Shown: one piece after another, positions 4,601-27,489 of the stretch
How positions within the stretch are numbered: position 1 is the stretch's first letter
Layout: each line of letters begins with the position of its first letter
Assembly: GCA_963702425.1 (NCBI GenBank)
Contig: CAVPCQ010000037.1
Coordinates: forward strand, 128,001 to 192,000
Length of the DNA: 64,000 bases
Source: an uncultured Acidobacteriota bacterium
GTDB lineage: Bacteria > Acidobacteriota > Polarisedimenticolia > J045
Direction: 5' to 3'
The notes under the pieces: model-generated
Told to the model about the DNA's origin: nothing
The model's database searches: none
Seen by the model: the letters and a program-made list of their open reading frames with translations, nothing else
Position numbers and translations under genes: made by a program

Positions 4601-7492
4601 CTGGCCCGACACCAGCGCGACGCCACCGGTGTAGCGTCCCCCGCCGAGCGCGGAGAGGGTCGCCGTTTCCTGGTCTCCTGACGAGGTCCGCACCGTCACG
4701 ACGATCGAGGCGCCGGCGTTCGCATCGAGCGCTTCCAGCCCGGCCACGCCGTCGCAGCCGAAGCGCGGGCGGGCGAAGCGCAACGATCCGCCCGCGGCCG
4801 AGACGGGCCCGACCGCGACGACCGCGAAATCCTGGCGCGCACCGCCGTCGACGAAGGGCGTGCCCGGGACGCTCTCCCCGACGACCTCGACCCGCCACAC
4901 TCCGGCCGGTGCGCCGCCGATCGGCAGCCGCACCACCTCGACGTTGTCGTTGTCGCTCACCGGGAACGCGTTCGGCGCCGTCGCTTCGCGCGTCGTCGCG
5001 TTGCGGTCGCGGGCGGACCACGCATTGCCGCGGTAGACCGTCCCGTTCGGCGCCGTGACGACGAGGTCGAGGTCGTTCACGAGGTACGACGGGGAGGCCA
5101 CGAGGGCCGGCGGATCGGGCCAGGTCAGCACGATCTTCAGCTCCTCGGCGCGGCCGTCGAGGTAGACCTCACTCGACCAGGACTCGCCGGTCGCGATCCC
5201 GCGGTCGCGCGCCACGTCCCAGACCGCGAGCCCGCGCGCGTCCCCGCCGAAGAACAGCGCGTCGTCGAGCTGGAGCCGCCCCCAGCCCTGCTCGTTCGTC
5301 GGCGCGTCGTCCTGCAGCAGCGCGAGGTTGCAGTCGCGGTCGCCGGTGCAGGTGAGCTGCGACTTCCCGCTGCACGTCCAGCAGTCGGCGTCCTCGGAGC
5401 AGGCGCCGAAGCCGTTCGTGCACAGGCCCACCGACAGGTCGCAGGTGTCGGGCAGGCAGGGCCCGTAGTCGGCGCCCCCGCGCCCGGTCATGTTGCGCGC
5501 GCCGGCGAGCAGCGTCGCCTTGAGCAGAGCCGCGGAAGGGACGAGCGCATCGCCTGCGCGCGCCGCGCCGGAGGGGTAGAACCCCTTCCGGAAGTACTCC
5601 CGCGCCAGCGCCGCGTAGCCCGCGACGAGCGGCGCCGCGAACGACGTGCCGTTCACCTCGAAGGTCGAGCAGGTGCGGCCGACTTCCTTGCGGTCCGAGG
5701 TGCCGGTGACGAGCGAGCGGCCCGAGATCACGATGTCGGGCTTGAGCCGCCCGTCCGTCGTCGGACCGCGGGAGGAGAACTCGGCGACGTTCTCCGGGTC
5801 GAGCGCCTTGGTCGGGTCGGGATCGGCTTGGACCCGCGCGTCCGACGCGCCGACGGTGAGCACGTTCTTGGCCGTTCCGGGGGAGGCGAGCGAGCCCGGG
5901 TAGGGCCCGCCGTTTCCGGCGCTGAAGACGATCAGGAAGTCGGGGTGATTCCACGCCATCCGGTCGGTGAAGAAGGCCAGCGTGTCGTACTGGTTCCGCG
6001 CCACGCCCCACGAGTTGGTCGAGATCCGGGCGCCGGCGTCACGCATCTGCTCGAACATCCGGTCGACGATCAGCGGGACCGGCAGCCCGAGCCCGACGAG
6101 CTGCCCCTGGTCGTCGCCGAGGTCCTCGACCACCAGCTTCGCCATCGGCGCGACCCCGTCGCCCGGGTCGTGGTGCGGGCCGAGCGGGTTCGCCTCGGTT
6201 GCCGGATCGGTCGGGTCGTCGCCGGCGGCCGAGACCGCGGTCCAGGTCCCGTGCGGGTCGCCGGAGCGCACGTCGTATGCGGTGGCCTTGGCCTGGAACG
6301 AGCCGAGCAGGTTGTAGGCGACGATCTTGCGCCGCGAGAGGTCGACCGGGATCGGGCCGGCCAGTGCGCCGTCGGCGGGAACGCTCGAGACCGGCGGCAA
6401 CCCGTGCAGGTCGTCGATCATCCAGCAGGTGTCGGGGTCGACGCCGCTGTCGGCGATCCCGATGAGCTCTCCGTCTCCGAGGAGTCCCCGCTTCCAGACC
6501 GTCGCAGACCTGGTGTAGTTGCGCTTCCAGAACCGGTCGTAGGACTGACCGATCCAGACCGCGTCGTCGTTGAGCAGTTCCACCGCGCCGCTCGGCTCGA
6601 GCGCAACCACCTCCTCGAGCGCCGCGACGCGCGACAGCGCGACACGCAGGCCCGAGCGCGGGACCGAGAGCGCGAGCAGCGCGACCGGGCCATCGCCGGC
6701 GACGCCGTCGAGGACGAGGCCCGGGAAAACCGAGGCGACGTCGTTCGCCAGGTCCTCCGCGGTCCGTCCCGGTCCGAGCAGCGCGAGCGCGTGGACCCGG
6801 AACGCGTCGAGCCCTTCGCCCGGCAGCGCACCCCGGGTCGGCTGGCCGGCCGCGACCCGGGCGAGCGAGCGATCGTACTTGTACCCGGGACGGTACCGGC
6901 CGACCCAGCGCACTCCCGGCAGTCCGGCCGCCCGGCCGAGCGCCAGGGCGTCGGCCCGCACCAGGTAGGCTTCGCGCGGCACGGCGAAGAGCGGCTGGAC
7001 CCCGGCCTCCGCCAGCGCGGCCCGCTCTCCCGGACCCGGGGGAGCGGCGAACTGGACCAGGGCGAGCCGTGGCGCGGCCGAGGAGAGGTTCTCGAATCCC
7101 GCGGGCTCGGGAGCGATCTCCGAGAGGTCCGGCTCCCCGTCCGCCAGCGGTTCGAAGGCCGTGGTGTCGAACAGGATCGCATGGGGCCGGGCCAGCAGAT
7201 CGTCCGGCGAGGGGTCCCCCCCGCGGCCGTCCAGGGCGCCCAGCCCCAGCAGGAGCGGGCCCCGCCAGCTACCGGGGAGCCGAGCGTCCGCCCCCGGCCC
7301 GGCCCCCGGACCGGCCCCTTCCGCGACCGCCGGAGGATCGGTCGAAAGGGGGACGGACGGGCCGAACGGCCCGCGGAAGGGGGCGGGCGGGCGCGTCGCG
7401 TCGCCGGCGAAGGCCGGGACGGCGGCTGCCGAAAAAAGGCCCGCGATAACAAAAAGGCGGGCCCGTCCGGCGCCCGCGGTCCACCCTGCCAT
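1652..7492 (-). CDS. Large secreted S8 (subtilisin-like) serine peptidase with FN3/Ig-like and other C-terminal modules, 1946 aa
   Basis: Signal peptide; catalytic motifs IGIADSG, HGTWTA, FSAGNGG and GTSFAAP; FSSRGPTTDGRLKPD and VNDLDLVV (KP-43-like); FN3-like W..Y repeats downstream. Confidence 0.92.
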   Translation of the reverse strand: MAGWTAGAGRARLFVIAGLFSAAAVPAFAGDATRPPAPFRGPFGPSVPLSTDPPAVAEGAGPGAGPGADARLPGSWRGPLLLGLGALDGRGGDPSPDDLLARPHAILFDTTAFEPLADGEPDLSEIAPEPAGFENLSSAAPRLALVQFAAPPGPGERAALAEAGVQPLFAVPREAYLVRADALALGRAAGLPGVRWVGRYRPGYKYDRSLARVAAGQPTRGALPGEGLDAFRVHALALLGPGRTAEDLANDVASVFPGLVLDGVAGDGPVALLALSVPRSGLRVALSRVAALEEVVALEPSGAVELLNDDAVWIGQSYDRFWKRNYTRSATVWKRGLLGDGELIGIADSGVDPDTCWMIDDLHGLPPVSSVPADGALAGPIPVDLSRRKIVAYNLLGSFQAKATAYDVRSGDPHGTWTAVSAAGDDPTDPATEANPLGPHHDPGDGVAPMAKLVVEDLGDDQGQLVGLGLPVPLIVDRMFEQMRDAGARISTNSWGVARNQYDTLAFFTDRMAWNHPDFLIVFSAGNGGPYPGSLASPGTAKNVLTVGASDARVQADPDPTKALDPENVAEFSSRGPTTDGRLKPDIVISGRSLVTGTSDRKEVGRTCSTFEVNGTSFAAPLVAGYAALAREYFRKGFYPSGAARAGDALVPSAALLKATLLAGARNMTGRGGADYGPCLPDTCDLSVGLCTNGFGACSEDADCWTCSGKSQLTCTGDRDCNLALLQDDAPTNEQGWGRLQLDDALFFGGDARGLAVWDVARDRGIATGESWSSEVYLDGRAEELKIVLTWPDPPALVASPSYLVNDLDLVVTAPNGTVYRGNAWSARDRNATTREATAPNAFPVSDNDNVEVVRLPIGGAPAGVWRVEVVGESVPGTPFVDGGARQDFAVVAVGPVSAAGGSLRFARPRFGCDGVAGLEALDANAGASIVVTVRTSSGDQETATLSALGGGRYTGGVALVSGQPIVLGNGRLELASGDELRAVYQDVSPAHAATARALTGCGQDLSVGPPTFAGGCDGDGFLDAGETGALSLTLVNPGPADLRGVTATLRSTDPQLYVASAEGAFGDLATGGAAPVAVPFQVSLRGDATATTATLELVVNADGWTEPRIVPVSLALETDETRTPGSWTDSFTSSLGECYDGDPAPTPGSWYWFDPNKNCSTSEPTWNIGLCFGSRQALIPSCSGQLLSTASKVNHRLVSPSVVTGEPGTTTILERVRFRESFHLKLNEDGKPCERTLVEVFTNRDGRTLPSGYYRDRSADGTNLTADLDPSRVTEWTLPPAADATTLQLLFRADIADSADGAVSCTSSSGDEIRWRVDDVELTWENIRRSADATVCAPACSAPAAPTGVSATVVGDAVVVGWNRSAAAHHYDVWRIEGAVRRFVGRVAGSEGALLDHPAGAGPFTYEVEALDASGLCAAPAATSNPLVPSATCLVAPAAPAALAAADAESAQCGVGLAWSAVTSPCGDPLSYRVFRSTDPAFVPGPATLRVETGATAYADSALTTGWDGLGEPAGDSWTYEVRAFDAASGLEGPGTRATVRAGGPRQSGSWIDDAGDARPAKMTSETTEDETAAGAGWSRSPIALHHGGSWSYWSDDEPLGTGRYPPLACFGLVGPGLPLDSAASPRLSFFADYSIEHRWDGMVVELSADGGPFAPIAPIGGYPNTFANTTPPPCAGDGGGNGAWINGCDYPPTQGCITGPASGTLSGWRRFEFNLQPWAGRTVRFRINLSSDCGTDGGAVIDDLAVSGVRLASACSAGTCWPPPQFIGLLSAEDLDPAAAGGVRLSWGEVVDWGGGGTGVFEIWRDGRLVATVDASARGFDDHDAEPNRDHRYQVLARSGSGCALPSASSATLTARDCGSVDPARLAAARLTVDRSPDGDQVVLRCAPIPGAARYRFPWSLEAATVGSLPSALESAAPEARHPVLRDGVSYFYLVQDGPASGCP

Positions 7493-8683: not shown

Positions 8684-9073
8684 CTAGCCGGGCGGGATCG
8701 GGATCGCCGCGAGACAGGCCGCCAACCGGCCGGCGCCGTGCGGGGGAAGCAGCGCCACCGCGCCCCAGCGTCGGGCCTGGTCCCCGGCGCCGGCGAGCTG
8801 CTCCGGAAGCAGGGCTACGGCCGAGGCGTGGCGGGACAGGGTCCGGATCACCTCCAGCCCTTCCTCCTCGAGCGAGACGAGGTCGACCACGACGAGCCCC
8901 GGCCGGTTCTGGGCGGCCACCGCTCCGGAGCCGCCCGGGGGCAGGCCCAGCAGCGACCAGGCGCGCTGCAGGTCGGGTACCCGCCGCGGCGAGAAGCCGG
9001 CCATCCGGATCCCCTCCTCGAGTTCCGGCAGACGGACCAGGTCGCGTGACACCAGCATCGCCCAGCGCAGCAC
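8684..9073 (-). CDS. Hypothetical protein, degenerate receiver-domain-like
   Basis: ORF filling the intergenic gap; PGLVVVDL...GLEVIRTL and ARRWGA resemble CheY-like elements, but the canonical acidic pocket and Lys are not evident. Confidence 0.45.
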   Translation of the reverse strand: MLRWAMLVSRDLVRLPELEEGIRMAGFSPRRVPDLQRAWSLLGLPPGGSGAVAAQNRPGLVVVDLVSLEEEGLEVIRTLSRHASAVALLPEQLAGAGDQARRWGAVALLPPHGAGRLAACLAAIPIPPG

Positions 9074-9271
9074 CGTGCCTCCGGAAGGTGACGGCCCCGC
9101 CGGGAGCCGGGCTCCCGGGGGGGCGGTTGTCCCCGCCGGCGCCGGAAACCTAGATTCCCGGGCGGGGGCCGAGCGCCCCGCCGTGGTCCGTCGGCGACCG
9201 GCCCGGCCCGGGGATTATCTCCCGAGTCGCGTGCGGCGCCGGGCGCGGCGTTGTCATCCCGGGAGACGGCC

Positions 9272-10489
9272 GTGCACATCAACGATCTCTTGAAGGCCGC
9301 GTCCGACAAGGGCGCTTCCGACCTCCACCTGAAGGTCGGCTCGTACCCGATCATCCGCGTCGACGGCCACCTGCTGGCGATGACCGAGCACCCGCGGCTG
9401 ATGCAGGAGGACGCGGTGGCGATGGCGTTCTCGATCATGAGCGCGCGCCAGAAGCAGAAGTTCAAGGAGAACCTCGAGATCGACATGGCCTACTCGGTTC
9501 CGGGGCTCGGCCGCTTCCGTGTCAACTGCTTCCAGCAGCGCGGCGCGGTCGGCATGGTCTTCCGCGTGGTCCCGGTGAAGATCCCGACCGTGCGCGAGCT
9601 GACGCTGCCGACGGTGCTCGAGCAGATCGCGTCGGAGGCCCGCGGGCTGATCCTCGTGACCGGGACGACCGGCTCCGGAAAGTCGACGACGCTCGCCGCG
9701 ATGATCGACTACATCAACGCGACGCGCTGCGAGCACATCATGACGATCGAGGACCCGATCGAGTTCCTGCACCGCGACAAGAAGTCGCTGATCAATCAGC
9801 GCGAGGTGGAGGTCGACACGAAGTCGTTCGCCGATGCGCTGCGCTCCGCGCTGCGGCAGGACCCGGACGTGATCCTGGTCGGCGAAATGCGCGACTACGA
9901 GACGATCGAGACGGCGCTGCTCGCGGCCGAGACCGGCCACCTGGTGCTCTCCACGCTGCACACCCTCGACGCCACCGAGACGATCAACCGGATCATCTCC
10001 GTCTTCCCGCCGCACCAGCAGAAGCAGATCCGGCTGCAGCTGGCGGCGGTCTTCCGCGCCTGCATCTCGATGCGGCTCGTGACCCGCGCCGACGGCCAGG
10101 GCCGCGCCCCGGCGGTCGAAGTGCTCCGCGTGACGCCGTACATCCGCGAGTGCGTCGAGAACAAGGACAAGACGAAGATGATCCGCGACGCGATCGCGCA
10201 GGGAACCTCGCAGTACGGGATGCAGACCTTCGACCAGTCGCTGCACCAGCTCTGGCAGGCCAAGGTCATCACCAAGGACGAGGCGCTCCTCCGGGCCACC
10301 AACCGCGACGAGCTGCGGCTGCGGATGGAGGGGATCGAGTCGACGTCCCAGTCGACCCAGGCGGCGATGCAGGAGGCGCTGGTCGGTGCGCCCGCTCCTG
10401 CCGGCGATGCCGGATCGTCCGGGCCGGCGCCCCGGCTGAACCGTTCCTCGCGCGAGGACGACTTCCCGCCGCTGCCGCGCACGCGCTAG
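9272..10489 (+). CDS. pilT: PilT/PilU family type IV pilus retraction ATPase
   Basis: ASDLHLKVG, Walker A GTTGSGKST, TIEDPIE, ALRQDPDVILVGEMRD, GHLVLSTLH, GMQTFDQ. Confidence 0.93.
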   Translation: MHINDLLKAASDKGASDLHLKVGSYPIIRVDGHLLAMTEHPRLMQEDAVAMAFSIMSARQKQKFKENLEIDMAYSVPGLGRFRVNCFQQRGAVGMVFRVVPVKIPTVRELTLPTVLEQIASEARGLILVTGTTGSGKSTTLAAMIDYINATRCEHIMTIEDPIEFLHRDKKSLINQREVEVDTKSFADALRSALRQDPDVILVGEMRDYETIETALLAAETGHLVLSTLHTLDATETINRIISVFPPHQQKQIRLQLAAVFRACISMRLVTRADGQGRAPAVEVLRVTPYIRECVENKDKTKMIRDAIAQGTSQYGMQTFDQSLHQLWQAKVITKDEALLRATNRDELRLRMEGIESTSQSTQAAMQEALVGAPAPAGDAGSSGPAPRLNRSSREDDFPPLPRTR

Positions 10490-10556
10490 ACCGCGCACCG
10501 CGCGGGGCCGCGATCCGCCGCCGGTCCGGGCCGCGGGGCGCGTGTATCCTCAGCGG

Positions 10557-11153
10557 ATGTCCCGCTCGAACAAGCCGGCCTTCGACCGCGCCGTGGCGGC
10601 GCTCGCGCACCGGGCGCTGAGCCTCGACGAGCTGCGCCAACGCCTGGCGCGGGCCGGCCACCCGCGCGAAGAGATCGACGCCGCACTGAACCGCCTGGCG
10701 GAACTGCAGCTCGTGGACGACCGGGCGGTTGCCTATGATCACGCCCGCTCGCGCGCCGCCGCCGGACGAAAGGGCCCGGCGCGCGTGCGGGCCGAGCTCG
10801 CAGCGCGCGGGATCCGGGGCGCCGACGCCGAGGGGGCGGTCGCCGCGGCGTTCGGCGAGGAGGGAGTTGCCGCCGCCGCCGCGCAGGCGTTCGCACGCTT
10901 CTCGCGCGGGATGCCGCGGCCGCTCGCGGCACCGGAACGCGCCCGGGTCGCGGCCCGCCTCGCGCGGGCCGGCTTCCCGGCGGCGATCATCCGGTCGCTC
11001 CTGGCATCGGACGGTGCCGGCGCCGCTGCCGCTGCCGCCGACGACGGCGCCGAGCACGGCGGCGACCCCGCGGTCGACGAACTGCTCCTCGACGGCTTCG
11101 ACGAGGAGTCGGGCGAGGATGAACCGGGCGTCCTGCGCGACGCCGAGGACTGA
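10557..11153 (+). CDS. recX: Regulatory protein RecX
   Basis: LAHRALSLDELRQRL, LVDDRAVA, KGPARVRAELAARGI, LARAGF; directly upstream of alaS, the usual recX-alaS synteny. Confidence 0.85.
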   Translation: MSRSNKPAFDRAVAALAHRALSLDELRQRLARAGHPREEIDAALNRLAELQLVDDRAVAYDHARSRAAAGRKGPARVRAELAARGIRGADAEGAVAAAFGEEGVAAAAAQAFARFSRGMPRPLAAPERARVAARLARAGFPAAIIRSLLASDGAGAAAAAADDGAEHGGDPAVDELLLDGFDEESGEDEPGVLRDAED

Positions 11154-11158
11154 CCACC

Positions 11159-13810
11159 ATGCATTCCCGTGACGTGCGCCGGACGTTCCTCGATTTCTTT
11201 GCCCGGCAGGGCCACCAGGTCGTGCCCTCCTCGCCGCTCGTGCTCCCGACGGACCCGTCGCTGCTCTTCGCGAACGCCGGGATGAACCAGTTCAAGGAGG
11301 TCTTCCGCGGGCACGACCACCGCCCCTACCGCCGCGCGGCCTCGTCGCAGAAATGCCTGCGCGTCTCCGGCAAGCACAACGACCTCGAGGAGGTGGGCCG
11401 CACCCCGCGGCACCACACCTTCTTCGAGATGCTCGGGAACTTCTCCTTCGGCGACTACTTCAAGCGCGAGGCGATCGCCTGGGGCTGGCAGCTGATGACG
11501 GAGGTCTACGGCCTGCCCGCCGAGCGCCTCCACGCGACGGTCTTCGCCGGCGACGACGATTTTCCCGGGGACGAGGAGGCGGCGCGCTTCTGGGAGAGCG
11601 AGGCCGGTGTCCCGGCGTCCCGGGTCACGGCCATGGGGCGCAAGGACAACTTCTGGCAGATGGGGGACACCGGTCCCGCCGGGCCGTGCAGCGAGATTCA
11701 CATCGACCTCCGCCCGCACGACCCGGTGCCGGCCACGCCGGCGACCGATCCCGAGCGCTTCATGGAGCTCTGGAACCTGGTCTTCATGCAGTTCGACCTG
11801 CAGCCGGGCGGGAAGGTCGGGACACTCCCCGCCCCGTCGGTCGACACCGGCGCGGGGCTCGAGCGCGTGACGGCGGTGCTGCAGGGGGTCTCTTCGAACT
11901 ACGACACCGACCTGTTCCAGCCGATCATCCGGAGCGTGGCGGCGGAGGCCGGGGTCGAGTACGGCGCCGGCGGCGACGCGGACGTCTCGCTGCGCGTGAT
12001 CGCCGACCACCTGCGCGCGATCGCCTTCCTCGTTGCCGAGGGGATCATCCCCGGCCCGGAGAAGCGCGGTGCGGTGCTGCGCCGGATCATGCGCCGCGCG
12101 CTGCGCCACGGGCGGCTGCTCGGAGCGCCATCGCCCTTCCTGGCGCCGCACCTCGAGGATGTGGCCGCCGTGCTGGGCGACCAGTACCCCGAGTTGCGGG
12201 AGCACATGGGGACGATGCAGAAGGTCGTACGCCGCGAGGAGCAGCGGTTCGAGCGCACGCTGGCCGACGGCTTCGCGCTGCTCGACGGGCGGATCGACGC
12301 CGTGCTGCGGGAGAGCGGCCGGCGTTTCCCCGGCGACGAGGCGTTCCAGCTCGAGAGCGAGCGCGGGCTGCCGATGGACCTCGTGCGCGATGCGCTGGAG
12401 GAACGCGGGCTCGTGCTGGACGAGGCGGCCTACGAGGCGGCCCGGGCCCGCCACGTCGCGACCTCCCGCGTGCTCAAGGCGGACGACGGGGATCGCGTCG
12501 AGCTCGAGGTCCTGGCCCCGTGGCGCGGGCAGGGCTCGCGCTTCGTCGGGCGCGAGACGCTGCGGGTCGACGCCGCGCGCGTCGTCGGGCTGCTGAAGGA
12601 CGGGCGGCCGGTCGATCGGCTCGCCGTCGGCGAGACGGGCGACGCGATCTTCGACGAGTCGCCCTTCTACCCCGAGGCCGGCGGCCAGGTGGGCGATCAC
12701 GGCCTGCTCGTGGGCGGCGAGGCCCGGGCACGCGTGACCGGCGCCCACGCGCCGATCAGCGGCGTCACGCTGCACCGGGTGGACGTGGGGGAGGGGACGC
12801 TCGTCCCGGGTGCCGTCGTGGTGCTGGAGGTCGACGCCGCCCGGCGGCGCGCGATCATGCGCCACCACACCGCCACGCACCTGCTGCACGCCGCGTTGCG
12901 GCGGCAGCTCGGGACACACGTCCGGCAGGCCGGCTCGCTCGTCGAGCCGGAGCGGCTGCGCTTCGACTTCGCCCACTACGAGCCGGTGGAGCCCGAGGTG
13001 CTGCGCGACATCGAGGCCGAGATCAACGAGGCGGTGCTGGCCGACACCCCGGTCGAAACGGTCGAGATGCCGATCGACGAGGCCCTGGCGAGCGGCGCGA
13101 TGGCCTTCTTCGGCGATCGCTACGGCGACCGGGTGCGCGTCGTCCGGATCGGGGAGGTCAGCCTCGAGCTGTGCGGCGGGACCCACGTCCTGCGGACCGG
13201 CGAGATCGGGACCACGGTGCTGGGGAGCGAGCGCGGCGTGGCGGCCGGGGTGCGGCGGATCGAAGCGCTCTCCGGGATGGCGGCGCTGGCCCGGGCGCGC
13301 GAGGAGTTCGACCGCACGCGGGACATGGCGCAGGCGATGGGAGTCGCCTCGGACGCGATCGCCGAGGAACTCGGGCGCCGGCTCGAGGCCCTGCGTCGGC
13401 TGCGGCGCGAAAACGAGGACCTGCGGCTCGAGCTGGCCCACGGCGGAGCGGCGACCGACGCGCCGCCGGAGGAGGTCGACGGCCTCCAGGTCATCGCGCG
13501 CCGGGCCGACGGCCTGGCCAAGGGTCAGCGGCGCGACCTGCTCGATACGCTGCGCCAGCAGAACCCGCGGGCGGTCGTGGTGCTGGCCGCCGCCGACGAG
13601 GGGAAGGTCGCCCTGCTCGTCGGCACCGGGCGCGAGGTCGGGGATGCGGTCGATGCGCGGCTGGTCGTGAAGGCGCTGGCTGCGATCGCCGGCGGAGCGG
13701 GCGGCGGCGGCCGCCCCGACCTGGCCGAGGCTGGAGGTCGCAACCCGGAGTCGCTGCCCGAGGTGCTCGCGCGAGCGGCCGAGGCGGTGCGGGGGGCTCG
13801 CCACGGCTGA
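11159..13810 (+). CDS. alaS: Alanine--tRNA ligase
   Basis: DPSLLFANAGMNQFK, HHTFFEMLGNFSFGDYFK, DTGAGLER, HHTATHLLH, ELCGGTHV, GGGRPDLAEAGG. Confidence 0.98.
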   Translation: MHSRDVRRTFLDFFARQGHQVVPSSPLVLPTDPSLLFANAGMNQFKEVFRGHDHRPYRRAASSQKCLRVSGKHNDLEEVGRTPRHHTFFEMLGNFSFGDYFKREAIAWGWQLMTEVYGLPAERLHATVFAGDDDFPGDEEAARFWESEAGVPASRVTAMGRKDNFWQMGDTGPAGPCSEIHIDLRPHDPVPATPATDPERFMELWNLVFMQFDLQPGGKVGTLPAPSVDTGAGLERVTAVLQGVSSNYDTDLFQPIIRSVAAEAGVEYGAGGDADVSLRVIADHLRAIAFLVAEGIIPGPEKRGAVLRRIMRRALRHGRLLGAPSPFLAPHLEDVAAVLGDQYPELREHMGTMQKVVRREEQRFERTLADGFALLDGRIDAVLRESGRRFPGDEAFQLESERGLPMDLVRDALEERGLVLDEAAYEAARARHVATSRVLKADDGDRVELEVLAPWRGQGSRFVGRETLRVDAARVVGLLKDGRPVDRLAVGETGDAIFDESPFYPEAGGQVGDHGLLVGGEARARVTGAHAPISGVTLHRVDVGEGTLVPGAVVVLEVDAARRRAIMRHHTATHLLHAALRRQLGTHVRQAGSLVEPERLRFDFAHYEPVEPEVLRDIEAEINEAVLADTPVETVEMPIDEALASGAMAFFGDRYGDRVRVVRIGEVSLELCGGTHVLRTGEIGTTVLGSERGVAAGVRRIEALSGMAALARAREEFDRTRDMAQAMGVASDAIAEELGRRLEALRRLRRENEDLRLELAHGGAATDAPPEEVDGLQVIARRADGLAKGQRRDLLDTLRQQNPRAVVVLAAADEGKVALLVGTGREVGDAVDARLVVKALAAIAGGAGGGGRPDLAEAGGRNPESLPEVLARAAEAVRGARHG

Positions 13811-13876
13811 GCGCCCCCGGCCGAGCGCTGCGACCGGACGGCCTGCCGTCTCGGAACCTACATTCGATCCCGGGAC

Positions 13877-14473
13877 ATGGGACTCCGGGACTCTGCAAGG
13901 CTCCGCGCCGTTCGGCGCGTGTCGGCGGCGTTCGCCGCGGCCTGTGGCGTGCTGTTCGTCTTCGCCACGGCGTTCGCGTCTCCCGCCGCTACGCGGTCGG
14001 CGGCGATCGGAAAGCCCTACCAGCTGCTCATCGAACGGACCGCCGAGCGCCACCAACTCGATCCGCTGCTGCTGGCGGCGCTGGTCGAGGTCGAGTCGGG
14101 GCGCGACGCGGAAGCCGTCTCGCCCAAGGGGGCGCGCGGACTGGGCCAGCTGATGCCGGCCACGGCCCGCCGCTTCGACGTCGGCGACGTTCACGATCCG
14201 GCGGAGAACCTCGACGGCGCGGCGCGCTATCTGGCCTGGTTGATCGAGCGCTATCAGGGCGATCTGACCCTCGCGCTCGCCGCGTACAACGCAGGGGAGG
14301 GTGCGGTCGACCGGCACCTCGGCGTCCCCCCTTACCCCGAGACGAAGGCGTACGTGCGGAAGGTGCTCGTCCGGGCCGGCCTCCGGGAGGGGGCGACGCG
14401 GCGCAGGGGTCCCGACCCGGTGCGGCTCTTTCGGCAGCCCGACGGGACCGTCCTCATCTCCAACCTCAAGTAG
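13877..14473 (+). CDS. Lytic transglycosylase (SLT domain)
   Basis: VEVESG, AVSPKGARGLGQLMPATA, ALAAYNAGEGAV, PPYPETKAYV. Confidence 0.92.
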   Translation: MGLRDSARLRAVRRVSAAFAAACGVLFVFATAFASPAATRSAAIGKPYQLLIERTAERHQLDPLLLAALVEVESGRDAEAVSPKGARGLGQLMPATARRFDVGDVHDPAENLDGAARYLAWLIERYQGDLTLALAAYNAGEGAVDRHLGVPPYPETKAYVRKVLVRAGLREGATRRRGPDPVRLFRQPDGTVLISNLK

Positions 14474-14581
14474 GCGCGGAGCCCGACCGGAGCCCCGACA
14501 GCCCGCATGACGCTCCTGTAAGTCCAGCCGCCCGCGCACCCCCGCAGTCCGCCGTCTCCGGCCTGGCACAAGGAGTTTTCC

Positions 14582-14609
14582 TTGCCGCCCCGCGCCGCCA
14601 GCGTACTTT
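14582..14609 (+). promoter_or_regulatory. Putative promoter of lipoprotein pair 1
   Basis: TTGCCG-N16-TACTTT; same architecture (cTTGCCG...gcgTA) as the promoter before pair 2. Confidence 0.5.
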
Positions 14610-14774
14610 TCCGGCCGGACCGGGGGGGACCGCAAGGTCCCCTCTAGGCGTTTTCTCTCAGTCCGGAAAGGGGGTCGGTCGTCGGTCGGAGCGCGTGTCA
14701 TGAACCAGGAGAAAAACCGAGAGAGCTGATAGAGGAGTTCAGATCAGGAACCCAAGGGAAAAGGAGTCGAGTTC

Positions 14775-15614
14775 ATGAAGAAGCTTCTCTTCATCGCGCT
14801 ACTGGCGGCATTCTCGCTGGGCTGCGCGATCACCAACTACCCGGTGATCACGGATAGCAGCGGCGCCGTCGACAACGGGGTGATGACCGGCCAGTACGAT
14901 CTGGCCTACATCATTCCGACCAGCCAGATCGCGACGATCTGGGACGACGGCACCGACGAGCTGTTCACCCTCGTGTCCCAGGACTGGAAGGGTGACCAGT
15001 GGCTGAAGACCTACAACAACTACGATTCGACGGGTGCCGTCGTCTTCCTCGACCAGACCTACTGCGATCCGACGTTCGACAGCAGCTACTGTGCGATCGC
15101 CACGGCCTGGAACCCGGACCTCCCGGACGCCTACGTCCACGGCGATCAGGGCGCCGGATACAACAATCTCGACAATCCGTTCGACTACACCGCTGACCTC
15201 AGCTGCAACGGCGCCCGCTCGCTGTCGGTGCTCGTCTCCTACACGAGCCGGATCGGCGAGTGCGGCAGCGGCGTCTGGGCCGACAAGCAGGGCGCTGCCT
15301 ACGAGTTCAGCATCCTGGGGCGGACCAACTTCCGCGGCCGGAGCCTGTACCATATCCCGCTGGACAACACCGTGGCCTCGTTCTCGGTCAACGGCACGGA
15401 GATGCCGGTCTACGGCCGGTTCAACCTCTACGTCGACGATTACATGCGCACGGTGATCCCGGTGACCCCCAACGCCCGGTACCAGCTCAACGCGCTGGAC
15501 CGTGCGGTGCGGCGGGACGGCCACTTCCTCGACGTGGACATGACGTACGGCTCGCTGACCGCGAATTTCAAGATCTATGTCAGCACCGTCCAGAACGCGC
15601 TCGACCGGCTCTGA
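14775..15614 (+). CDS. Lipoprotein of unknown family, type A copy 1 (A1)
   Basis: Lipobox FSLG-C after MKK plus a hydrophobic stretch; RBS AAAAGGAG; paralogous to the next three genes. Confidence 0.9.
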   Translation: MKKLLFIALLAAFSLGCAITNYPVITDSSGAVDNGVMTGQYDLAYIIPTSQIATIWDDGTDELFTLVSQDWKGDQWLKTYNNYDSTGAVVFLDQTYCDPTFDSSYCAIATAWNPDLPDAYVHGDQGAGYNNLDNPFDYTADLSCNGARSLSVLVSYTSRIGECGSGVWADKQGAAYEFSILGRTNFRGRSLYHIPLDNTVASFSVNGTEMPVYGRFNLYVDDYMRTVIPVTPNARYQLNALDRAVRRDGHFLDVDMTYGSLTANFKIYVSTVQNALDRL

Positions 15615-15632
15615 GCGGGAAAAGGAGAACTG

Positions 15633-16433
15633 ATGAAAAAGCTCCTGCTCAGCGCCCTCGTACTCGCCCTCGCAGCCGCCGGCTGCGCGGTGACCGACTA
15701 CCCCGTCATCACCGATGACCGGGGCAGCTACAGCGGCATCATCCGGACCGGCCACAAGGCCTACGTCGTGCCGACCTCGCAGATCGCGACGATCTGGGAC
15801 GACGGTTCGGACGAGCTCTTCTCGATGGTCTACCAGAACCAGTACGGAGACCAGAAGCTCTACACCTTCAACAACTTCGATCCGACGGCGTCGGTCCTGT
15901 TCCTGGACCAGACCTACTGCGACTGGCGCTACGATGATTGCGAAATCGTCCGCGCGTGGAATCCGGCCAACTCCAACATCGACAACCCGTTCGACTACGA
16001 GTTCTTCCCGGACTGCTCCGGGGCGCGCTCGCTGTCGCTGCTGATCAGCCAGAGCAGCCGTCTCGCCGAGTGCGGCGACAAGCTCCCGATGGCCGACAAG
16101 CAGGGCGTCATGGCCGAGTTCGCCAACCTCGCGACCACCACGTGGCGCGGCGGGGTGGCCTACGTGCTGCCGATCAACGCCGAGAACACCTCGGTCAGCC
16201 TGAACGGGGTGAGCATGCCGCTCTACGGGCAGTTCACGACGATCGTCACCGGCAGGATGGACCTGGTCGTTCCGGCCACCCCGAACCTCCGCCACGAGCT
16301 GCGCTGGCTGGCGGATTACGTCGCGAAGAACGGCAACCAGGCGAGCGTGTCGCTGACTTACGGTTCGGTCAGCGCCAACCTCGACATGGCGTTCTCCGCG
16401 AGCGGGATCAACTACAACCTCAATCGCTTCTGA
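15633..16433 (+). CDS. Lipoprotein of unknown family, type B copy 1 (B1)
   Basis: Lipobox AAAG-C; RBS AAAAGGAG; shares SQIATIWDDG, FLDQTYCD and C.GARSLS with type A. Confidence 0.9.
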   Translation: MKKLLLSALVLALAAAGCAVTDYPVITDDRGSYSGIIRTGHKAYVVPTSQIATIWDDGSDELFSMVYQNQYGDQKLYTFNNFDPTASVLFLDQTYCDWRYDDCEIVRAWNPANSNIDNPFDYEFFPDCSGARSLSLLISQSSRLAECGDKLPMADKQGVMAEFANLATTTWRGGVAYVLPINAENTSVSLNGVSMPLYGQFTTIVTGRMDLVVPATPNLRHELRWLADYVAKNGNQASVSLTYGSVSANLDMAFSASGINYNLNRF

Positions 16434-16456
16434 CCCTGTCCGACGCGCCGATCGAC

Positions 16457-16492
16457 GGGGGCGGCTCCGCGAGGAGCCGCCCCTTTTTCTTT
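16457..16492 (+). terminator. Rho-independent terminator after pair 1
   Basis: GGGGCGGCTCC-GCGA-GGAGCCGCCCC then TTTTTCTTT. Confidence 0.9.
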
Positions 16493-16631
16493 GGTCCGAG
16501 GCCGTTCCGGCAGAACCGGGACCGGGCTGGACCACCGTTGGGGCCCGAAAACTAACTAACAGTTACCGATTGAGAAGTAAACGCGATGGCCGTCCGGGTG
16601 AAACCCCGCGAGTGGCGCGGGAAAAAACTGC

Positions 16632-16659
16632 TTGCCGAGCCCCCGGGTCGGCGTAGATT
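16632..16659 (+). promoter_or_regulatory. Putative promoter of lipoprotein pair 2
   Basis: TTGCCG-N16-TAGATT preceded by an A-tract (GAAAAAA). Confidence 0.55.
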
Positions 16660-16800
16660 CCGCTCGGTTCAGTTGATCGAGTCGCAATCCAGGGAGACGC
16701 ATACTGGAGAAAGGGGGTAGTTAGTCGGGTTGAGCGCGCACGTTGAACTGGTAGAGAGACGGAAACCAAGTCAGGTAACCAAGGGAAAAGGAGTCAATCC

Positions 16801-17637
16801 ATGAAGAAGCTTCTCTTGATCGCCCTGCTCGCGGCTTTCTCGCTGGGCTGCGCGATCACGAACTATCCGGTGATCTTCGACAGCCGGGGCGCCGATGACG
16901 GCGGGGTGATGACCGGTCAGTACGATCTCGCTTACATCAGCACCTCCCAGATCGCGACGATTTGGGATGACGGCACGGACGAGCTGTTCACCCTCGTGTC
17001 GCAGGACTGGAAGGGCGACCAGTGGCTGAAGACCTATAACAACTACGATCCGACGGGCGCGGTCACCTTCCTCGACCAGACCTACTGCGATCCGACGTTC
17101 GACAGCAGCTACTGCGCGATCGTCACCGCCTGGAATCCGGACCTTCCGGAGGCCTACGTGCACGGCGACCAGGGTGCTGGCTACAACAACATCGACAACG
17201 TCTTTGACTATACGTTCGACACGAGCTGCAACGGCGCCCGCTCGCTCTCCCTGCTGGTCTCCTACACCACCCGCTACGGCGAGTGCGGCAGCAGCGTCTG
17301 GGCCGACCGGCAGGGTGCGGCCTACGAGTTCAGCCTGCTCGACAAGGTCAACTTCCGCGGCAAGAGCGTTTACCACATCCCGGTCGACAGCACCGTGGCT
17401 TCCTTCACGGTCAACGGGACCGAGATGCCGATCTACGGCCGGTTCAACATGTACATGAACGACAAGCTCCAGGTCGCCATGCCCATGACCCCGAATGCTC
17501 GCTACCAGCTCAACGCGATCAACCGGATCATCGAGCGCGACGGCCACTTCATGGACGTGAACATGACCTACGGCTCGCTGAATGCGAACTTCAAGGTCAA
17601 CGTGACCACCGTCCAGAATGCGCTCGACCGGCTGTGA
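16801..17637 (+). CDS. Lipoprotein of unknown family, type A copy 2 (A2)
   Basis: Close paralog of A1 (near-identical signal peptide, same TVQNALDRL end); RBS context CCAAGGGAAAAGGAGTC shared with A1. Confidence 0.9.
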   Translation: MKKLLLIALLAAFSLGCAITNYPVIFDSRGADDGGVMTGQYDLAYISTSQIATIWDDGTDELFTLVSQDWKGDQWLKTYNNYDPTGAVTFLDQTYCDPTFDSSYCAIVTAWNPDLPEAYVHGDQGAGYNNIDNVFDYTFDTSCNGARSLSLLVSYTTRYGECGSSVWADRQGAAYEFSLLDKVNFRGKSVYHIPVDSTVASFTVNGTEMPIYGRFNMYMNDKLQVAMPMTPNARYQLNAINRIIERDGHFMDVNMTYGSLNANFKVNVTTVQNALDRL

Positions 17638-17674
17638 TAGACGGAACCTTGAGCAGGATAAAAGGAGCGAGACC

Positions 17675-18466
17675 ATGAAGAAGCTGATTCTTTGCGCGGT
17701 CGTCCTCGCGTTCTTGGCGGCGGGCTGCGCGGTCACTGATTACCCGATCATCACCGATGACCGGGGCAGCTACAGCGGCATCATCCGCACGGGCCACAAG
17801 GCCTGGATCCAGATCTCTCAGATTGGAACGATCTGGGACGACGGAACGGACGAGATCTTCAACATGGTTTACCAGAATCAGTATGGTGACCAGAAGCTCT
17901 ACTCGTTCAACAATTTCGATCCGACCGGGTCGGTGATCTTCCTCGACCAGACCTACTGCGACTGGCGCTACGAGGGCTGCGAGATCACCCGTTCCTGGAA
18001 CCCCGCGAACCCCAACGTCGACGTCATCTTCGACTACGAGTTCTTCCCGGATTGCTCCGGTGCCCGTTCGCTCTCCCTCCTGGTCTCCTACACGACCCGG
18101 TACGGCGAGTGTGGTGACAAGTGGTCCAACATCCAGGACAAGGCCGCCGAGTTCGCCAACCTCGCCACGACCACCTGGCGCGGTGGCACGGCCTACGTGA
18201 TCCCGATCAACGCCGAGACCACGTCGGTGTCGCTGAATGGCGTGACCATGCCGATCTACGGCCAGTTCACCGCCTTCATCACCGACAAGAACAACACCGT
18301 CTTCCCGATGACTCCGAATGCCCGTCACGAGATCGCCTGGCTGAGCAACTACGTTGCCGAGAACGGCAATCAGGCCAACGCGACGATCACCTTCGGATCG
18401 GTCAGCGCCAACTTCAACATGGCGTTCGCGACGGACGGTCTCACCAACAACCTGAACCGGTTCTGA
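17675..18466 (+). CDS. Lipoprotein of unknown family, type B copy 2 (B2)
   Basis: ATG 17675 after AAAAGGAG; lipobox LAAG-C; close paralog of B1, ending NLNRF. Confidence 0.9.
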   Translation: MKKLILCAVVLAFLAAGCAVTDYPIITDDRGSYSGIIRTGHKAWIQISQIGTIWDDGTDEIFNMVYQNQYGDQKLYSFNNFDPTGSVIFLDQTYCDWRYEGCEITRSWNPANPNVDVIFDYEFFPDCSGARSLSLLVSYTTRYGECGDKWSNIQDKAAEFANLATTTWRGGTAYVIPINAETTSVSLNGVTMPIYGQFTAFITDKNNTVFPMTPNARHEIAWLSNYVAENGNQANATITFGSVSANFNMAFATDGLTNNLNRF

Positions 18467-18492
18467 TCTAGCACCGCGCGCTCAAACTGACG

Positions 18493-18521
18493 GGGGCGGC
18501 CCTTCGGGGCCGCCCCTTTTT
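18493..18521 (+). terminator. Rho-independent terminator after pair 2
   Basis: GGGGCGGCCC-TTCG-GGGCCGCCCC then TTTTT. Confidence 0.9.
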
Positions 18522-20073
18522 ATCTTCCGGAGGAGAGCGCCGGCTGGCGGCGCGCCGCCGCCACCGCGGCGGCCGGATCGACGAGACCGAACCCCGATGC
18601 GTCATCCGGTCCAGCCGGGCCGAGGTCTCGGGCCGTTGCGCGGAGGATCGCCTCGACCGCCGGCACGGGAAGCTCGGGGCGGACCTGCATGACGAGCGCG
18701 GCGACGCCGCCGACCCACCCGACCGCGAACGAGGTCCCCGACTCGAGCGTGAGCGACGTGGGATGGGGCGCACCAGGGACCGGGACCTGCCACCCCGGGG
18801 CCGAGAGGTCCGGAAAGACCCCGGTCCGTCCGCCGCACGGGGAGGGCCCGCGCGAGGAGGGACCGATCACCGCGAGCGCCTGGTCGACGGCTGCGATCGC
18901 CAGCGGGCCGCCGGCCCCCGGCACGAACCCCCCGAGGGCCGCGGGAGCCTGGCCGCTCGCCGCGTCGGGGCCGTCGTTGCCGGCGGCGAAGACCGGGACG
19001 ATGCCGGCCGCGCGGGCCGCCGAGACGAACGCGCGGTCGCGCGGATCGCAGTCGGACTTCCCGTGCCCCCACGCGCCGAGCACCACGTCCGGTCGGGCCT
19101 CGAAGATCATCCAGTCGGCGGCGAGCGCCATGTCGATGTTGTTGTAGCTGTTGAAACGGTTGGCGAGCGCGGCCACCCAGGTCGCCCCCGGGGCGGCCCC
19201 GAAGTCGTGCCCCTCGTACGGCCGTGCCACGGCGCAGGCCAGGACCTGGGAGCCGTGCGGCTTGGTGTCGATCGGCTCGCTGCGCTCGCCGCGCGGGTCG
19301 TACCACGACCGCTCGGGCCGGCGCCCGCCGGCGAGCAGCACGTGGTCCCCCATGACCCCGCTGTCGAGGCTCCCCACCACGATGCCGCGCCCGTCGACCC
19401 CGGCCTCCCAGAGCGGGCGCAGGCCGAGCGCCCCGACGCCCCAACTGTCGCCGGGCGGGATCGGCGGCGCCGCCCGGATCGCCGAGCTCGACTCGCGCCG
19501 CTTGTCGCGCACCGAGTCGTATTCGGGAATCAGTTCCGCCACCGCGGGGTGCGCGCGCAGCGGGTCGAGCGCGGCCGGCTTCGCGGAGAGGTAGACCCGG
19601 TTCCTGTACCGGAGGTAGCGGACGAACTCCACCCGCCCGTCCGCCACCAGGTCGTCGAGCAGGGGGGCGATCGCGGCGCGGCCCCGGTCGGCGACGGCAT
19701 CGAGGGCTTCGAGCGATTCGGTGCGGCTGGCCTGGCGGGTCAGGCCGCGTTCGAGCTGGCCGGCCAGCAGGGCCTCGGTGTCGACCTGCTCGCGCAGGTC
19801 GACGAGGAGGCGCAGATAGCCCTCGGACGACAGCTTCCGGCGATCGGAGAACCCGGGATCGAGCGGTCGCAGGGCTGCCGGGCCGGGGTCGGGAGCGAGG
19901 GGGACCCGGTGTGGCGGAAGCGGCCGCCGGGCCCGCACTGGACGCGGGCGGGGGAAGAGACGGGGTCCGGCAGCCGGAAACGGAGACGAGCGCGGCGAGC
20001 GCCGCGAGCGCCCCGAGCGCCGCGAGCCCGGTCCCGGGGATCCCGCGGGCCCCGGACCGCGCGGCCGACCCAC
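18520..20073 (-). CDS. S8 family serine peptidase (bacillopeptidase F-like catalytic domain); start uncertain
   Basis: VGSLDSG, HGSQV, FAAGNDG, SSRGP, GTSFAVG, GFGLVD. The N-terminus may be frameshifted, as a hydrophobic signal-like stretch near 19980-20030 lies in another frame. Confidence 0.85.
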   Translation of the reverse strand: MGRPRGPGPAGSPGPGSRRSGRSRRSPRSSPFPAAGPRLFPRPRPVRARRPLPPHRVPLAPDPGPAALRPLDPGFSDRRKLSSEGYLRLLVDLREQVDTEALLAGQLERGLTRQASRTESLEALDAVADRGRAAIAPLLDDLVADGRVEFVRYLRYRNRVYLSAKPAALDPLRAHPAVAELIPEYDSVRDKRRESSSAIRAAPPIPPGDSWGVGALGLRPLWEAGVDGRGIVVGSLDSGVMGDHVLLAGGRRPERSWYDPRGERSEPIDTKPHGSQVLACAVARPYEGHDFGAAPGATWVAALANRFNSYNNIDMALAADWMIFEARPDVVLGAWGHGKSDCDPRDRAFVSAARAAGIVPVFAAGNDGPDAASGQAPAALGGFVPGAGGPLAIAAVDQALAVIGPSSRGPSPCGGRTGVFPDLSAPGWQVPVPGAPHPTSLTLESGTSFAVGWVGGVAALVMQVRPELPVPAVEAILRATARDLGPAGPDDASGFGLVDPAAAVAAARRQPALSSGR

Positions 20074-20410
20074 CGTCGCGGCGCGCGCCCGGGAAGCCTG
20101 CCGTTCATCGGTTCGGTTCCCGGGTGTTCGCCGTGCCCGCCCGCCGGTGGGGGATGCCTGGTCGCGTCGTCGTCATGCGGGGAGTGTAGGTCGCGGGGCG
20201 ATGCCGGTCGAAATCCCGTCCGTGCGGGGTGGCTGCTTTCGTCGTACATTGCGACGGCAATCGGGGCACTTTCGGGGCGACGGACGTTGAGGAGGAGCTG
20301 ATGCGGGCCCATACCCCGCCCTTCGCCTCGGCGAGGCCTCGCCTCGCCGTCCGGCGCCCCGGTCCCGTCCCCAGAAACCCGTTCTCGTTCCGTTCTCCGG
20401 AGGTATTCGC

Positions 20411-27489
<7,079 letters not shown>

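Follow-up and report, generated by a model that had tools for sequence, protein, structure and literature searches.

Two tandem pairs of paralogous lipoprotein genes from a family limited to one class of Acidobacteriota: candidate partner proteins of the cell envelope

Introduction

Type V pilins are lipoprotein precursors whose N-terminal pro-region is cut at Arg46 or Arg49 (FimA/Mfa1) by an Arg-gingipain, giving a groove for donor-strand exchange, with structural homologues reported from Bacteroidia only (PMC8512630). Here we set beside these pilins, and beside the lipid-anchored carriers of the LprG/LppX and LolB types, a cassette of four paralogous lipoprotein genes, two of a type A and two of a type B, that we analysed in a stretch of 64,000 nucleotides (hereafter the window; contig CAVPCQ010000037.1, positions 128,001 to 192,000) from an uncultured bacterium of the class Polarisedimenticolia, in the Acidobacteriota. 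This phylum is abundant in soils and sediments, is mostly uncultured, and has a poorly known envelope. An earlier note, made from the letters of the window, had proposed that the four proteins are highly expressed subunits of a pilus, a surface layer (S-layer) or a pore that work as A+B hetero-pairs.

In the reading that we prefer, and to which we give about an even chance, the cassette encodes abundant envelope lipoproteins that lie flush on the membrane and act as A/B partners. The family itself is new; tandem paralogous lipoproteins, as a kind of system, are already known.

Two A-B units of lipoprotein precursors

The region consists of two autonomous two-gene operons, with one A-type and one B-type lipoprotein gene apiece, which together span 14582-18527 on the + strand. 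Both units have the same parts: a promoter-like site, a leader, a ribosome-binding site (RBS) for each gene and a terminator-like hairpin. The four genes are as follows.

14775-15614, + strand: A1, lipoprotein precursor of 279 residues, lipobox FSLGC, Cys17
15633-16433, + strand: B1, lipoprotein precursor of 266 residues, lipobox AAAGC, Cys18
16801-17637, + strand: A2, lipoprotein precursor of 278 residues
17675-18466, + strand: B2, lipoprotein precursor of 263 residues

The open reading frame (ORF) of B2, as listed, opens upstream at 17618; we adopted the MKK start at 17675 because an RBS precedes it. In an alignment of the four proteins, A2 shares 82% identity with A1, B1 50% and B2 48%. ORFs and alignment bear out the four paralogs in two tandem A-B units that the earlier note had described, and every item of its motif list is present: SQI.TIWDDG.DE.F, FLDQTYCD, C.GARSLS.L.S, ECG, MP.YG.F, TPN.R and T[YF]GS..AN are common to all four proteins, together with four conserved cysteines beyond the lipobox Cys (positions 97, 106, 144 and 163 of A1).

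The lipoprotein signal was followed in 59 homologues taken from the window and 24 loci. In all 59, a hydrophobic stretch leads up to x-x-G-C at the aligned lipobox, which reads SLGC in 29 and AAGC in 9. The N-terminus is basic in most of them, the four window proteins beginning MKKL, and position +2 is Ala in 52. The motif C-x-[IL]-[TSV]-[DN]-Y, or in its longer form C-x-[IL]-[TSV]-[DN]-Y-x-x-I-x-D, starts at the lipobox Cys itself in 59 of 59, so that the lipobox followed at once by conserved sequence, first noticed in the window, holds across the class. Judged from these sequences, the precursors are probably lipidated, and the first residues past the anchor appear to belong to the fold, with the usual place of a linker empty across the class. 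Among 44 aligned N-terminal domains, Cys1, Tyr6, Ile9, Asp11, Gln53, Tyr80, Cys81 and Glu146-Cys147-Gly148 (numbered in the mature protein) are invariant, and the remaining two cysteines are at least 90% conserved.

An unannotated family limited to one class

Against Pfam and NCBIfam, the four cassette proteins gave sub-threshold chance hits only, and 88 family members gave no family match in Pfam, the three weak hits concerning one member each. A sequence profile search of the PDB returned only aequorin, at E 0.15. The family is thus as unrecognised as had been supposed, with no match in Pfam or NCBIfam and no confident match to a known enzyme or solute-binding family. A word-indexed protein search at E<=1e-3 retrieved 275 proteins with A1 as query and 254 with B1, all labelled hypothetical; every organism name given among these matches (7 and 9 rows) is that of an Acidobacteria/Acidobacteriota metagenome-assembled genome. 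We found no literature on the family in a search of main texts.

An exhaustive profile search produced 121 representatives at 50% identity; among the more distant of these, many align to profile positions 1-150 only and have C-terminal parts that differ. Eight distant representatives were read: seven have a lipobox Cys with -I-T-D-Y- directly after it, and the eighth, which lacks its N-terminus, starts at the motif. No fused form of 490-2000 residues was found at E<=1e-3, which is weak evidence. In three distant members (P0158, P0174 and P0227, of 318-334 residues) the C-terminus is a short and strongly basic tail (RRDRR, RRTRR and SRRR) that is absent from the window proteins.

In a sample of the phylum, a match is present in 15 of 401 genomes, every one of them from the class of the window. 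Within a sample of that class the count is 40 of 119 genomes. By family-level group, it is 21 of 22 in that of the window; two other groups reach 8 of 13 and 6 of 16, and the largest group apart from that of the window has 0 of 29. Genomes with a match have from 1 to 10 matches each, which are not copy numbers. We therefore describe an unannotated lipoprotein family limited to one class of Acidobacteriota.

Evolution of the A and B types

In a tree of the 59 homologues, an A clade (22 rows, support 100/96) and a B clade (21 rows, 92/93) are sisters, nested in a single clade (100/100) that corresponds to the family-level group of the window. The order of the genes along the loci is as follows.

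A-B-A-B: the window, L009, L010, L011, L015 and L016
A-B-A-B-A: L013/L030, which are near-identical and probably one species
A-B-B: L031
A-B: L018

Because both A copies of a lineage group together, as do both B copies, the second A-B unit arose separately in the genus of the window, in L015 and in L013/L030, as far as the sequences tell. Duplication also occurs in other family-level groups: G129 has two near-identical tandem copies and G093 at least 8. Several genomes outside the group of the window (G001, G141, G163, G234 and G284) have a single copy.

The ratio of nonsynonymous to synonymous substitution rates (dN/dS) is 0.08-0.32 in the N-terminal domain. For the C-terminal domain, 12 comparisons were made inside the A or the B type, and 11 of them give 0.16-0.45; in the remaining one, B1 against its nearest orthologue, the ratio is 0.90, at a dS of only 0.06. 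All four window genes are under purifying selection. Between A1 and A2, dS is 0.58 and 0.64 in the two domains; the two values are alike and so give no sign of recent gene conversion.

The genome of the window has a fifth, B-like copy (G000 contig C21:67434-68222, - strand, locus L005). This copy is split over three reading frames, either as a pseudogene or through an error of assembly. Of its orthologues in two genomes of the same genus, that in L029 is intact (267 residues) and that in G433 has two TGA stops. The fifth copy adjoins genes of the 3-hydroxyisobutyrate dehydrogenase and CAAX protease types, not S8 or SLT genes. At L016:8001-11669, changes of frame break up three of the four family genes, probably through a long-read assembly error rather than through decay.

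Predicted structure and contact between A and B

Full-length A1, modelled with AlphaFold2 from an 88-row alignment, reached a mean predicted local distance difference test (pLDDT) of 82.9 and a predicted template modelling score (pTM) of 0.59. The model has two beta-rich domains, at about residues 17-165 and 171-279, and the N-terminal domain modelled alone has a pLDDT of 75.8 and a pTM of 0.74. The segment after the lipobox Cys is the most conserved part of the protein and is modelled as strands of the domain. A structure search with such models, which had been proposed as a check, came back blank: Foldseek gave 0 matches at E<=1e-3 against the PDB with either the full A1 model or that of the N-terminal domain, and 0 against a viral structure library at the same threshold. 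No known fold is recognised in these predicted models, from which we do not conclude that the fold is new.

Below threshold, the rows for the N-terminal domain are mostly beta cups that hold hydrophobic ligands, and those for the C-terminal domain include phage tail-tube proteins. In a protein atlas, the matches include an LppX_LprAFG cluster (0.85) and a DUF4412 cluster (0.84); no score reached 0.9, hence we take them as leads only. Structures of FimA/Mfa pilins, of TbpB-type proteins and of LprG were absent from the 50 matches listed for each PDB search, which does not exclude them. The atlas leads, and the fact that the invariant polar residues sit in the N-terminal domain, would suit a carrier or binder of hydrophobic ligands, lipids among them, as LprG/LppX or LolB are. 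In such a protein the N-terminal domain would be a curved beta-sheet cup by the membrane and would hold a lipid, a glycolipid or a similar ligand. We consider this unlikely, as the atlas scores all lie below 0.9, Foldseek was blank at E<=1e-3, and the LolA, LolB and LppX families of Pfam are unmatched in the 88 members.

For contact between the two types, a complex of mature A1 and mature B1 was predicted, each with the alignment of its own clade, and scored 0.40, the best of 3 controls scoring 0.00. The mark is reached by 116 of 157 solved complexes and by 2 of 215 mismatched pairs; at a score of 0.60 or below, it is reached by 18 of the 157 solved complexes and by both of the passing mismatches. 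As our own alignments were used, these benchmark counts hold roughly only. Agreement between the A1+B1 runs is at least 37% of contacts, with a partner pLDDT of 66 or more. The prediction thus lends weak support to an A1+B1 complex. For the proposed A+B hetero-pairs, this and the A-then-B order kept in relatives speak in favour; the single-copy genomes outside the group speak against.

Contigs from RNA libraries

Ten runs filed as RNA-Seq (nine of them RNA on record, one a guess) contained 5-7% of the sampled words of 13800-20100. Contigs from 4 of those 10 runs, from four studies, were placed on 9000-24000, and 30 of the 32 listed contig pieces fall inside 14687-18492. All four genes and both leaders are covered, with the cover of the leaders beginning at 14687 in unit 1 (X7 record 17, which spans 14687-14902) and at 16701 in unit 2 (X1 record 5 at 16701, X9 record 29 at 16724 and X6 record 12 at 16735). 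Some pieces have zero differences from the window (X6 records 12 and 14, X9 record 26). A1 and B1 are bridged by pieces in X1, and A2 and B2 by pieces in X1, X6 and X9, with at least 31 letters on each side; a contig spanning two genes does not prove one transcript. The SLT gene, the S8 gene and most of alaS have almost no contig cover, which is no evidence of low expression. For the high expression that had been claimed, the contigs show presence in RNA libraries on all four genes; they give no ranking of genes.

Proposed role: envelope lipoproteins acting as partners

Taken together, we propose the following model. Each precursor would be exported and lipidated at the lipobox Cys, and with the folded domain beginning at that same residue the protein would lie flush on the membrane face. 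With Ala at position +2, the cassette proteins are likely to sit at the outer membrane. Two disulfides are expected among the conserved cysteines outside the cytoplasm, and spacing would pair 97 with 106 and 144 with 163 of A1. The conserved N-terminal domain (~150 residues) would provide the core function or contact, and the more variable C-terminal domain (~105 residues) would face away from it. A and B are probably partners, and the proteins may be made in large amounts as structural or protective components of the envelope.

Several points weigh against this model. The localisation, abundance and binding of the proteins are what we infer, as are the membrane side, the disulfides, the A-B contact and the role. 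The +2 rule for outer-membrane sorting derives from Enterobacteria, and would carry over to Acidobacteriota by analogy. The invariant Tyr, Asp, Gln and Glu fit a ligand or catalytic site equally well as a structural contact. Single-copy genomes occur outside the group, therefore hetero-pairing is not ancestral, and the numbers of A and B vary, as the A-B-B of L031 and the A-B-A-B-A of L013/L030 illustrate. The RNA evidence consists of assembled contigs, which can neither rank genes nor exclude carry-over of DNA. The score of the predicted A1+B1 complex falls in the weak band, and because A and B are paralogues the predicted interface could equally be that of a homo-oligomer.

A bolder version of the model, which we regard as improbable, is that A/B heterodimers with an unseen fold tile the outer membrane as a lipid-anchored coat, a lipoprotein equivalent of the S-layer specific to this class. 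The N-terminal domains would form a lattice at the membrane, and the exposed C-terminal domains would have been duplicated repeatedly under pressure from phages or predators. SLH domains were not found in the 88 members with Pfam, which excludes an SLH-type S-layer only, as S-layer proteins are diverse.

This family is kept in part of one class, is present in RNA libraries, has no named relatives and goes unrecognised by structure searches. If it is a major component of the envelope, it would be a lineage marker, a target for metaproteomics and a candidate for a new fold, and the conserved A/B pairing offers a hypothesis that is simple to test.

Promoter-like sites, leaders and terminators

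The signals around the two units are as follows.

14582-14609, + strand: promoter-like site of unit 1, TTGCCG at 14582-14587, N16, TACTTT at 14604-14609; putative function
14610-14774, + strand: leader of unit 1, ~159 nucleotides, with blocks GAAAGGGGGT, GAGCGCG and AAGGGAAAAGGAGTC
14759-14766, + strand: RBS AAAAGGAG of A1
15620-15627, + strand: RBS AAAAGGAG of B1
16457-16484, + strand: terminator-like hairpin at the end of unit 1, 12 pairs of which 10 are G-C, T run to 16494
16632-16659, + strand: promoter-like site of unit 2, TTGCCG at 16632-16637, N16, TAGATT at 16654-16659
16660-16800, + strand: leader of unit 2, ~135 nucleotides
16786-16793, + strand: RBS AAAAGGAG of A2
17660-17667, + strand: RBS AAAAGGAG of B2
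18492-18517, + strand: terminator-like hairpin at the end of unit 2, 11 pairs of which 10 are G-C, T run to 18527

Across an alignment of upstream regions taken from four genomes, the core letters of TTGCCG-N16-TAnnTT are the same in 8 of 8. A strict sigma-70 scan of the region found 0 promoter-like sites, so that of the promoters claimed earlier what remains is a conserved site in front of either unit, which we call promoter-like by its conservation. The leader lengths are reckoned from the -10-like hexamers, transcription being assumed to begin just downstream. Both leaders share the three blocks listed for unit 1, and several leader blocks are invariant in the same 8 upstream regions. Searched against Rfam, the leaders had no match at E<=1, the sub-threshold hits being of terminator type only; their RNAalifold consensus has a covariation term of merely -2.0 kcal/mol, and we claim no RNA element. 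The RBS lies 7-8 nucleotides upstream of all four ATGs. The leaders, strong RBSs and terminators of the earlier description could all be read in both units, at the positions above.

Two further features were seen here. The unit 1 leader opens with a G+C-rich hairpin directly after the -10-like hexamer, and past the terminator of unit 1, ahead of the promoter-like site of unit 2, comes an A+T-rich stretch (16545-16590), which is unusual in a genome of 74% G+C content (GC).

Neighbouring genes and their linkage to the cassette

Two conserved neighbours enclose the cassette.

13877-14473, + strand: lytic transglycosylase with an SLT domain (PF01464, E 7e-25)
18520-20073, - strand: convergent S8 subtilase, start codon uncertain (PF00082, E 9e-31)

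They belong to a larger block, in the order aminotransferase IV, pilT-like ATPase, recX, alaS, SLT, family genes, convergent S8 and a giant FG-GAP/TSP3 gene, which recurs wholly or partly in relatives; AlaRS identity among these goes as low as 47%, and they include a genome of 49% GC. We compared the main locus in 14 genomes. An S8 gene is near the family genes in 13 of them, and an SLT gene adjoins them, on the other side, in 12 and lies 7 kb off in one more. In G129 (L027), family genes, S8 and FG-GAP are kept together, and alaS and SLT are outside the retrieved span.

Such linkage would be expected if the cassette proteins were partners of the neighbouring enzymes, as inhibitor, substrate or scaffold for S8 or SLT, together with the giant FG-GAP/TSP3 protein. 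We find this decidedly unlikely. Synteny cannot show shared function here, because unrelated housekeeping genes (aminotransferase IV, the pilT-like ATPase, recX and alaS) are kept in the same block and the cassette is served by promoter-like sites and terminators of its own, with S8 convergent to it. L018 keeps alaS-SLT-A-B and has no S8, and in three loci other genes stand between the family and S8: a sulfatase-TPR gene in two of them (L025 and L028), and in L024 an ORF that Pfam does not match. At least 8 further family copies lie beside unrelated genes (Rieske/cytochrome b, LigD, GST, ion channel, dehydrogenase). The linkage to S8, SLT and FG-GAP genes, which was to be checked, does recur across the class and is not specific. 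We do not retain the ideas that the S8 peptidase matures the cassette proteins or that they are displayed alongside the giant adhesin: both draw solely on the neighbourhood, where housekeeping genes are equally syntenic and from which the further copies are absent.

Other genes of the block deserve mention. A second S8 subtilase gene, of 1946 residues, lies at 1652-7492 of the window (- strand) and is also present in L030 and L031. The giant FG-GAP/TSP3 gene, from 20411 to ~27044 (+ strand), is broken into frames 20411-22828, 21631-23337, 23407-24684 and 25464-27044, each with FG-GAP or TSP_3 matches. The breaks are due either to assembly errors or to frameshifts, the gene being rich in repeats. 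In L009, of the same genus, the corresponding frame is open for at least 1070 codons, to the end of the locus. Genes with sulfatase and TPR domains were seen in two distant genomes, between the family gene and S8 at L025:5005-7980 and L028:5500-7740, and between S8 and FG-GAP at L028:1900-3837.

Polymerisation and base composition

The analogy offered for the cassette had been a pilus-like polymer, built in the way of type V pili from lipoprotein precursors that a protease cleaves and strand exchange then links. It is attractive in that lipoprotein precursors adjoin a protease gene and that, in the B clade only, a conserved Arg30 and Arg38 are found in a low-confidence loop. We nonetheless judge it very unlikely. 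None of the 88 members matches a type V pilin family of Pfam at E<=0.01, nor do the four window proteins at E<=1. Within the first 50 mature positions of the 44 aligned members, no Arg or Lys is invariant or nearly so, and in A1 the first basic residue past Cys17 is Lys72. The stretch that follows the Cys belongs to the conserved fold, where the models place it in strands, and it leaves no disposable pro-region; the adjoining protease is a subtilase, not an Arg-specific gingipain. The analogy is therefore not supported, and no test specifically backed a filament, an S-layer or a pore.

As the earlier note had observed, the cassette is lower in GC than its flanks and its proteins are rich in Asn, Asp, Thr and Tyr; they are also poor in Ala, Arg and Pro. 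Compared with 11 neighbouring proteins, Asn makes up 6.5-9.4% (against 1.8%), Tyr 5.3-7.3% (against 1.8%) and Arg 3.7-4.6% (against 9.4%), and the mature proteins are acidic (isoelectric point 4.3-4.5). The dip in GC is confined to the first and second codon positions (0.47-0.56 and 0.40-0.44). It reflects amino-acid composition and not foreign DNA, because GC at the third position (0.87-0.94) is native, similar to that of the neighbours. The GC of the cassette (0.57-0.67, against 0.73-0.77 in the flanks) might suggest an island of foreign or phage origin that was acquired recently. This reading has next to no chance of being correct and is rejected: it is contradicted by the native third positions, by the position of the locus, kept across the class, and by a family tree that tracks genome kinship, and the viral structure library gave it no match either.

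Comparison with known systems

The type V pilins (FimA/Mfa1) of Porphyromonas gingivalis and other Bacteroidia resemble the cassette proteins in being lipoprotein precursors of the signal peptidase II type, beta-rich, two-domain and of similar size, with several paralogues per locus. Unlike in the pilins, the fold of the cassette proteins starts at the Cys, a basic site is not conserved family-wide, and the phylum is a different one. Proteins of the LprG/LppX (PF07161) and LolB types are likewise lipid-anchored, beta-rich proteins of the envelope, a likeness that comes from weak leads. Compared with these, the cassette proteins have no sequence match and structural scores in the range of chance, and they possess a second domain and four conserved cysteines.

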